The notes under the pieces: model-generated
What the model was told of the DNA's origin: nothing
What the model saw: the letters and a program-made list of their open reading frames with translations, nothing else
Databases searched by the model: none
Assembly: GCA_951406725.2 (NCBI GenBank)
Contig: OX597837.1
Location: 39,618,001 to 39,682,000 of the forward strand
Source of the DNA: Octopus vulgaris
Taxonomy: Eukaryota
Direction of reading: 5' to 3'
Length of the DNA: 64,000 bases
Program-made: the position numbers and the translations under genes
Part shown: positions 45,900 through 48,600 of the stretch, piece after piece
How positions within the stretch are numbered: the stretch's first letter is position 1
How the letters are laid out: the number at the start of each line of letters is the position of its first letter

Positions 45900-46760
45900 G
45901 GCTGACAATCACTGTTGTAAATCATTGATTACATTATTTGTTGGTGCATTTACCCCGTGTAGTTCAAAAGCCGCTGGCGTAGTCAAGTTAGTTGCATGAA
46001 GATCACATATTTTGCTACGAATTTCCTTCGAAACAATTGATGAATATCCTTGCTTTATCTTTGAGAACTTTATAGTCTTGTTAAATGTTGCTTTGTACAG
46101 ATGGCTTAATACGTTCGAAGAACTGCAACTAAATGGTAATTGATTCATAAGAGAGTACTATAAATCCTCGAGTATAGTCCGCCCTAGAGTATAATATTCA
46201 GGGGATTTTTAGGGGGCTGTACCTCTGAAAAACCTAAGCCTTGTGTATAATACGCACCACTTCTCTAACTTGAGTCAAGGAGGTCTATATAACGTCCTTG
46301 GTTTGTAAAAATGTATACGGTAACGTCCTTTATTATTATTGTATATATAGCATAATGCAAACATGTAGCTTTTTTGTGCATTTTGTTTGCAGAAAATAAA
46401 GAAATAACAGTAATAACGTTTAATAAATGTTGCTTACTGCAAGTTATGGATGATTCTTTTAGGACTTCATTGCTTTCAGGCTTAGCTTAAGGTATTTTCG
46501 CACCCTACATCACAAAATGCGTCTGAATAAACATTGCCGGACAGCATATAGAGACTCGGACATTGCTTAGAAAATATTTTAAATTTTTAACCTCGTATAT
46601 AGTACGCACTAAGGATTTTGACCTTTAAATTTTGGGGGAAAAATGCGGATTATACTCGAGGATTGACGGTAAGCTATTTTCAATTGAAAGAAACGAGTTA
46701 TTCCCCTTGGACGAGATAGTACCACGTAGCTCTTAACTTTATATGTCGACGCCTGGGAGT
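45900..46760 (-). pseudogene. Decayed duplicate of a CEP295 giant-exon segment, interrupted by a MITE
   Basis: SNI*QDYKVLKDKARIFINCFEGN versus CEP295 [24 protein letters not shown]; 46672-46712 matches 9026-9066. Confidence 0.8.
46158..46669. mobile_element. Tc1/mariner-pogo-type MITE
   Basis: TIRs ctataaatcctcgagtatagtccgc / gcggattatactcgaggattgacgg, flanked by TA on both sides. Confidence 0.8.
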
Positions 46761-47224
46761 TCATATGATTGTGGCGGGGTCACACAAGCAAAATGGTAAA
46801 TTGGGGTCCCACAGTTGTATATTAAAGGTCCATGAATGAATTATGCTTTATATGTATTTATTGCAACAAACAGCTTGGTTTCTTTCCTTACCGTTTTTAT
46901 CGAATAAATCGATCCAAACATCTTTTCTAAAAGCCTAGTACTTATTCTATCGGTCTCGTTTGCCGAATCGCTAAGTTACAGGGACGTAAACACACCAACA
47001 CCGATTGTCAAGCGGTGGTGGTGGTACAAACACGAACACATACGACAGGTTTCTTTCAGTTTCCGTCAACCAAATCCACTCACAGGGCTTTGGTCGGCCC
47101 GAAGCTATAGTAGAAGACACTTGACCAAGGTGCAACGCAGTGGGACTGAACCCGGAACCATGTGAATGGGAAGCAAACTTCTTACCAAACAACAATTAAA
47201 AATTTTTTTTTTTCAATATCTTTC

Positions 47225-47627
47225 GGATCTTTTCGGTTTGAACGGCAGTTTTTTAAAAATAATTTCCACGTAACTAAACACTTTTAAACTTCGTATACTG
47301 GTAGAATGTGTTTATAAAACATCTTTTTTCTCTTGGCTTTATTGAGAAAATTCTATAGTTTGTAAGATATTTGTTGTTTTTCTTTTCTTCAATTTCTGCA
47401 ATTTCAACCAATCAATGACGTCCATTGAGGTAAGAAACATTCTGTGTCGTATGAATATGTCCCTCGTTTAAGAAACAGATTGGGTTTATTTACATTTGTG
47501 AAGAAAAAAAGATACCCTTCCCCCACCCAGATTGAAAAGCAACAGATCGATACTAGGGTCATAATTATGGGTGACAGTTTCATATGACACCGCTAGAAAA
47601 AACTGCCGTTCAAACCGAAAAGATCCT
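47225..47627. mobile_element. MITE with ~30-bp TIRs (GGATCTTTTCGGTTTGAACGGCAG)
   Basis: Both TIRs present; partial relatives at 32400-32590 and 23387-23530. Confidence 0.8.
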
Positions 47628-47629
47628 AT

Positions 47630-48600
47630 TTTTCTCTAATTATCTGTTCTATTTACAGTGGAAGAACTGACAGACCCCTAACCTGTACCCTTTCTTCGCT
47701 TCCTTTTCAATTGCACCAACTAATGCTGGTTTATTTGTACAAAAGAAGCGCCATACAAAGACAACCCTTTCTGCCAAACCATGACTAGCCTAGTGGTTTT
47801 TAACATTTGTTCTTTCTCCTCCTTCGGAATCGATAAATTAAGTACCAGTTGCGTACTGAGGTTGATCTAATCGACTGGTGCCCCCAAATTTCGGGCCTCG
47901 TGTCTAAAGTAGAAAAGATTTGTACGCGCGCACGCACGCAAGAGACCAAGGGAAATAACTCGTCTCTGTCGGGTGAAAATAGGTCACAATTCTAAGAAGC
48001 TGCCATCACCTCGACCAATTCCAGAACTCCTCACCTGCCCAGAACACAGGCATTAATTTTGGATGCGTAACAGCAATGGTTAATTTATATTAATCCTTAT
48101 CGAGCAAAGGACCAGTTTCTCAGGTGTGTGTGTGTATATATATATATATCATCATCGTCATCCTCATAAAACATCCGTTCTTCTGTTCTATTGACAGTGG
48201 AAGAACTGACAGACCCCTAACCTGTACCCTTTCTTCGCTTCCTTTTCAATTGCACCAACTATTGTTGGTTTATTTGTACAAAAGCAGCGCCATACAAAGA
48301 CAACCCTTTCCGCCAAACCTAGTGGCTTTTAACATTTGTTCTTTATCCTCCTTCGGAATCGATTAATTAAGTACCAGTTGCGTACTGAGGTTGATCTAAT
48401 CGACTGGTCCCCCCAAATTTCGGGCCTTGTGTCTAGAGTAGAAAAGATTTGTACGCGCGCACGCACGCAAGAGACCAAGGGAAATAACTCGTTTCTGTCA
48501 GGTGAAAATAGGTCACAATTCTAAGAAGCTGCCATCGCCTCGACCAATTCCAGAACTCCTCACCTGCCCAGAACACAGGTATTAAATTTGGATGCGTTAC
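47630..48600 (+). pseudogene. Two tandem, inverted, decayed duplicates of a CEP295 giant-exon segment
   Basis: CSIYSGRTD..SSLPFQLHQL, KDNPFCQT and [17 protein letters not shown] versus CEP295 [27 protein letters not shown] and [17 protein letters not shown]. Confidence 0.8.

Follow-up and report, generated by a model that had tools for sequence, protein, structure and literature searches.

Replication template switching (FoSTeS/MMBIR) produces templated insertions and DUP-INV patterns. Among molluscs, the Lymnaea NOS pseudogene antiNOS-2 derives from a gene duplicate via an internal DNA inversion, is transcribed, and has been proposed to pair with NOS mRNA, according to the sections of PMC3537157 drawn on here. 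Another described system is psi-PPM1K, a pseudogene-derived endo-siRNA locus in the excerpted account of PMC3616710.

In the window (the whole stretch of 64,000 nucleotides of Octopus vulgaris DNA that was analysed), searches with blastn and nhmmer identified four decayed pieces of the large CEP295 exon between CEP63 and the first exon of CEP295, three of them inverted and one in the sense of the gene. These are probably (at roughly four chances in five) without function, the neutrally decaying relics of a single old duplication of local DNA.

Gene setting and the exon-derived pieces

The minus-strand gene comprises 17 coding exons (40886 to 6037), mapped with a database protein labelled Octopus sinensis (P0001, with 96% identity across the searched region). 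Neither P0001 nor any of seven window frames gave a Pfam family above the cut-off, so the identity of this gene as CEP295 rests on homologs: the first 330 residues of P0001 match 13 other proteins, 10 of which are named CEP295. CEP63 is the next gene upstream and lies on the minus strand too, as indicated by a Pfam match (PF17045) over the cut-off 1.5 kb past the window end and by proteins of that name, which map to exons from 63999 to 52213; both gene names in the preliminary description were therefore correct. The two are centriole genes and head-to-tail neighbours 8 kb apart (6037-63999). In human, DEUP1 (a paralog of CEP63) presumably lies near CEP295, and by analogy the neighbourhood is possibly an ancient microsynteny; a literature search for CEP295-CEP63 synteny or Deup1-KIAA1731 found no paper.

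The first, 5' untranslated exon of CEP295, as far as it is assembled, occupies 43851..44454 (minus strand, with a GT donor at its end) and is represented by contigs of 6978 nt (run X11, spanning 44454-43852) and 6553 nt (run X8, spanning 44040-43851); position 44454 is the longest assembled leader end and not a reading of the true transcript start, which contigs do not give. The start codon is split by the first intron (43851 / 40885), with A from the leader exon and TG from the next exon, and an in-frame stop lies a few codons upstream of the split ATG. A putative NRF1-like palindrome (44372-44381) sits within the leader, some 75 nt in from its 5' end as assembled. The donor of the pieces is the large penultimate coding exon (8205..11585, minus strand; tblastn with P0001 and P0019), specifically its regions 8787-9297 and 9584-9786. 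This exon ends with a tandem peptide repeat (8290-8830) of FEQQGPN-like units of about 11 aa, the length of which varies among the window protein, P0001, and P0015 of O. bimaculoides.

Piece A (45013..45217, plus strand) is an inverted decayed copy of gene positions 9584-9786 (about 72% identical, nhmmer E 2.4e-20). Piece B has the same sense as the gene and consists of a left part (45939..46155, minus strand; decayed copy of about 8787-9022, nhmmer E 1.5e-8) and a right part (46670..46726, minus strand; copy of about 9024-9078, nhmmer E 0.005) that contains a 39-nt core and one arm of a 22-bp stem. Piece C1 (47629..48031, plus strand; nhmmer E 3.8e-17) is an inverted decayed copy of 8979-9297, and piece C2 (48180..48560, plus strand; nhmmer E 3.4e-13) is a tandem duplicate of C1. 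Along the plus strand the order is A forward, B reversed, C forward, C forward. Without insertions, identity to the gene is 72% for A, 65% for B, 68% for C1 and 67% for C2, and the alignment scores of 165-188 beat every one of 200 dinucleotide shuffles per piece (maxima 72-97), the figures for B including a tail later rejected as repeat. An extension of B to gene position 9201 was rejected since 46745-46900 is a genome-wide repeat.

The preliminary description had recognized three copies, two of them inverted, all from about 8790-9300 of the gene. Comparison with the CEP295 exon by blastn yields significant decayed matches in the orientations it gave, and nhmmer agrees, but the pieces number four: A, the best nhmmer match, had been missed. 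The proposed source range is not covered by every piece: C comes from 8979-9297 and B from about 8787-9078, with only about 100 nt in common. The same-sense copy placed at 45900-46760 corresponds to the MITE-split piece at 45939-46726, except that 46745-46900 belongs to the genome-wide repeat, whereas the opposite-sense tandem copies placed at 47630-48035 and 48180-48570, each holding a SINE fragment, coincide with C1 (47629-48031) and C2 (48180-48560). The stops and frameshifts ascribed to the copies are seen in translations and alignments alike; they are disabling changes, and the pieces show no sign of coding constraint.

C1 and C2 are identical at 402 of 419 aligned letters (96%) and contain the same SINE fragment, which interrupts C1 at about 47805-47921, so the doubling of C postdates the SINE insertion. 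The tandem doubling is young.

The repeat content of 44455-49100 is about 40% by local count. A palindromic MITE found genome-wide (45246..45431; 1610 first-look candidates, 47-nt arms) and a SINE copy (45440..45830, plus strand; many matches in the window) lie between A and B. As had been claimed, B is split by a MITE (46156..46671; TA-flanked, with inverted ends and repeat-level depth) that was inserted at a TA and left both sides colinear with the gene; by its end motif we take it to be of Tc1/mariner type. The site is empty in organism E, where about 23 nt separate 46078 from 46669 in record 3 of run X14. To the right of B, 46745..47200 contains the dispersed repeat (46745-46900, 777 first-look candidates) and then a SINE, followed by a MITE with perfect 30-nt inverted ends (47225..47626; recognized by sequence and run depth). 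The latter seems to belong to a young family, and its right end is at repeat-level depth in three DNA runs and almost absent from X14. Beyond C2, an old fragment of a dispersed repeat takes up 48775-49075; it matches the genome 15 times at 68-88%, and two small runs have contigs of low depth there. For this reason RNA-like cover of 48830-49086 was rejected as locus-specific.

Copy number, divergence and age

Searches of the 2.8-Gb genome, in which very common words were skipped, returned only C1 and C2 for piece C, only itself for the exon-like part of A (none of the other hits begins before query position 247, and they lie in the adjacent MITE), and, for the left part of B, the query itself together with two hits of just 47-70 nt. 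With the exon protein as query, the genome search (21 candidates scored) returned the gene and piece A and no paralog of CEP295; B and C were not returned, so that weak pieces may be missed by this search. Searched with the leader and each of the 17 coding exons, the window plus 200 kb of flanking DNA contains no further piece at E<0.08, and two sub-threshold hits (E 0.08-0.1) both fall in a simple-sequence stretch. Significant homology to the parent gene without a dispersed family fits a duplicated pseudogene fragment, and the relic reading gains support because only the large CEP295 exon was copied, and only here. The converse derivation, in which a dispersed repeat was exapted into CEP295, is extremely improbable: the interval is repeat-rich, yet its repeats are separable from the exon-like pieces, and genome searches with C, A, the left part of B and the exon protein show no family. 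That the segment might be a genome-wide repeat, a possibility that the preliminary description had itself raised, is thus largely ruled out.

In the 69-nt ungapped overlap, the gene, B and C are equidistant (differences: gene-B 24, gene-C1 22, gene-C2 23, B-C1 23, B-C2 22; site patterns 10:9:8 for gene, B and C2). Distances so similar speak for a single event or for two that followed each other closely. In the 39-nt core, which was picked post hoc, B and C2 differ at 5 sites versus 9 from the gene for each (patterns 6:2:2, p=0.08), and the patterns with C1 are 5:3:3 (p=0.29). The same block, again with the caveat of post hoc choice, is identical in the gene, B and C2 at 28/39 sites versus 9/30 alongside (p=0.0007). 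The copies had been judged closer to each other than to the gene on account of a shared CCAAGGG where the gene has CTAATGT; the difference is present, but the closer relationship is not established by either the equidistant 69-nt overlap or the core. One of the three distinguishing letters is a change in the gene itself, because P0015 shares with the copies a Gly codon's product where the window gene encodes Val, a polarity that holds at the amino-acid level with O. bimaculoides as the single outgroup. Shared letters among copies are expected even under independent copying, because changes that arose later in the gene give just this appearance.

Piece A shows 44% identity with the window protein and 43% with P0015, and these two proteins share 86% identity here; being about equally far from both, A points to a duplication that predates the split from O. 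bimaculoides, for which the sections of PMC7656900 drawn on here give no date. DNA contigs of four other organisms (B, C, D and E, 4/4 runs) all cover A and the left part of B, and the presence of A and B in all of them argues that the duplication is old. Piece C has long-contig cover in organisms B and C; in runs X9 and X14 its unique parts have little or no cover at 80% likeness, but as no contig there joins across, this thin cover is not a sign that C is absent. From organism B, A differs by 2.1% and the right part of B by 1.2%; from organism E, the differences are 11/202 (5.4%) and 20/232 (8.6%), rates that are not different (p=0.26). The distances from the window to organism E (0.057 for A, 0.092 for the right part of B) are well below the copy-to-gene distances of 0.2-0.47 substitutions/site, so the duplication would be several times older than that split. 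The relic reading is supported because the cross-run differences in A and the right part of B are ordinary; counted against it is that the pieces are still recognisable after so many substitutions. The left part of B (45847-46182) differs from organism B at 26/336 letters plus 21 gap letters, versus 4/325 beyond the MITE (Fisher p 4e-5), and is also the most divergent piece in organisms D and E, a local hypervariability.

If piece A or the 39-nt core were kept as a DNA element upstream of CEP295, such as an enhancer, one could understand why A, 559 nt upstream of the longest assembled leader end, is the best preserved piece and is covered in 4/4 DNA runs with 2-5% differences. Its rate of change to organism E is nevertheless not lower than that of the right part of B, and this function is improbable.

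Differences from the gene are distributed by codon position as 33/138 first, 33/136 second and 49/137 third. Second positions have changed as much as first, as would be expected of a copy free of coding constraint, and the mild third-position excess (p=0.045) can be accounted for by the living gene. The same excess, together with recognisable sequence that is exonic only and a gene-frame K-G-N-N-S-F-L-S in both B and C2, could instead reflect an RNA-templated insertion (a retrocopy or cDNA patch) or the remains of a once-functional CEP295 paralog. An RNA template keeps some small probability because all pieces fall within one 3.4-kb exon; by nhmmer, no piece reaches an exon boundary, and age would have erased any poly(A) tail or target-site duplication. 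These origins are nevertheless improbable, given the absence of any exon-exon junction, the local position of the copy, the lack of any trace in 264 kb of the N-terminal exons, which are far more conserved, and the failure of the genome search to find a paralog.

Transcription and complementarity across the interval

Among the contigs listed for four small runs, run X8, whose kind is not on record, includes one of 202 nt over 47604-47815, overlapping C1, with a depth of 2.4 versus 43 for the CEP295 leader contig. Depth cannot rank expression here, and the contig is unstranded and may be DNA carry-over. No RNA record is listed for 47628-49080, which is evidence neither for nor against transcription. 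The same run also has spliced CEP295 contigs. In the four small runs, bin 47956-48179 has a depth of 0 in 4/4 and bin 45044-45267 has depths of 0, 0, 1.2 and 2.6; since contigs indicate presence only, the zeros do not argue for silence. The last coding exon of CEP63 (52210..52360, minus strand; stop codon 52212-52210) is followed by AATAAA at 51768 and 51543, 442 and 667 nt beyond the stop, from where C2 is still about 3 kb away; AATAAA recurs on the minus strand within C1 and C2.

A database protein model (P0019, 2796 aa) fuses CEP63 to CEP295 in frame across the interval, whereas other sources annotate the two as separate genes. Judging by its junction, 52214 would be spliced to an exon of 11 nt (43861-43851) whose acceptor is poor in pyrimidines; the implied GT donor sits just before the CEP63 stop, and the 11-nt exon is a piece of the CEP295 leader exon. 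The fusion model may be a prediction artefact.

As the preliminary description anticipated, in a minus-strand transcript spanning 45-48.6 kb the pieces A, C1 and C2 would be antisense to CEP295 mRNA, and the predicted pairing exceeds that of shuffled sequences: -173 kcal/mol for A with the mRNA (shuffled -70, sd 7) and -95 kcal/mol for the C1 core (shuffled -45, sd 6), the latter being about 40% of a perfect duplex (-225 kcal/mol). The sense/antisense foldback that had been proposed also exists, but as a single 22-bp B:C2 stem (46689-46710 with 48475-48496), from the overlap of about 100 nt, in the predicted fold of 45000-48620. The B:C arms are 42 nt at 81-86% with a longest helix of 22 bp including G-U pairs, which falls short of the long, highly complementary inverted repeat characteristic of hairpin-RNA and endo-siRNA loci. 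MITEs give predicted helices of 28-30 bp in the same fold, and inverted SINE pairs would be far better dsRNA (208-325 predicted pairs, -360 to -559 kcal/mol). Because complementarity of the pieces is poor next to these SINE pairs, the relic reading is again supported.

A regulator of the antiNOS type, in which the inverted duplicate is transcribed and pairs with CEP295 mRNA or folds into an ADAR or Dicer substrate, would accord with the orientation of A, C1 and C2, the predicted duplexes, the B:C2 stem, the low-depth unstranded contig over C1, the fused model P0019 and the molluscan precedent as presented in the cited sections of PMC3537157. It is unlikely in view of an identity to the mRNA of 65-72% with longest exact words of 12-16 nt, the short overlap between B and C with a MITE cutting into B, the stronger SINE pairs, the minus-strand poly(A) hexamers before and inside C, and a fused model that needs an 11-nt exon with a pyrimidine-poor acceptor where other sources annotate two genes. 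Moreover, in the portions of these papers used here, animal editing mainly hits dsRNA from young repeats (PMC9989829) and squid edits in untranslated sequence mostly overlap repeats (PMC9068888), so that the transposons would be the likelier targets of any editing at this locus. The earlier suggestion of a regulatory dsRNA, endo-siRNA or ADAR substrate lacks support, considering the low identity, the short exact words, the AATAAA before C2 and a longest assembled leader that stops 559 nt short of piece A. Just as doubtful is the more specific proposal that CEP63 read-through, perhaps spliced as an in-frame CEP63-CEP295 fusion, crosses the old scrambled duplicate and yields antisense RNA of the antiNOS kind, which has kept the 22-bp stem and tunes CEP295. 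If true, antisense read-through from CEP63 would couple two neighbouring centriole genes in octopus, and the locus of these two genes would provide a second molluscan case of gene control from an inverted duplicate.

For relics, RNA over the pieces would be stray read-through with no regulatory job. Counted against relics are the C1 contig, the P0019 model and the 39-nt block that forms the 22-bp stem.

Origin of the pieces and comparison with described systems

The pieces may have been produced by replication or repair with template switches, which would have copied exon sequence across a distance of 36-39 kb in mixed orientation. An alternative route would be an inverted duplication followed by inversion and deletions, and one inverted copy with a later inverted insertion and deletions would also yield the observed order of pieces. 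B and C would be of roughly equal age and much older than the split from O. bimaculoides. As a relic the locus matters little: it neatly documents a local duplication, an inversion, transposon insertions and a tandem doubling, and comparisons among octopods could use it as a dated neutral marker.

Like antiNOS-2, the CEP295 pieces belong to a mollusc and represent a gene duplicate with sense and antisense parts after inversion (B sense; A, C1 and C2 inverted), but antiNOS-2 has a demonstrated regulated transcript and an open frame in the sections of PMC3537157 cited above, whereas the CEP295 pieces are 60-400 nt long and transposon-separated, with no open frame and no defined transcript. Like psi-PPM1K, they constitute a partial antisense copy near the parent gene, with SINE sequence and inverted repeats; psi-PPM1K, in the excerpted account of PMC3616710, is backed by mRNA/EST data, exceeds 79% identity over 300 nt and gives rise to small RNAs that have been sequenced, whereas the CEP295 pieces are 65-72% identical. 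Closest are duplicated pseudogene fragments and template-switch insertions, which have in common with this locus a local source, several pieces of mixed orientation, a small overlap, neutral decay and later transposons, although the CEP295 pieces are too old for junction microhomology to be legible and keep no intron or flank sequence that would establish a DNA template. In its workings the locus resembles no demonstrated system; judged by sequence, the pieces look like a duplicated pseudogene fragment.
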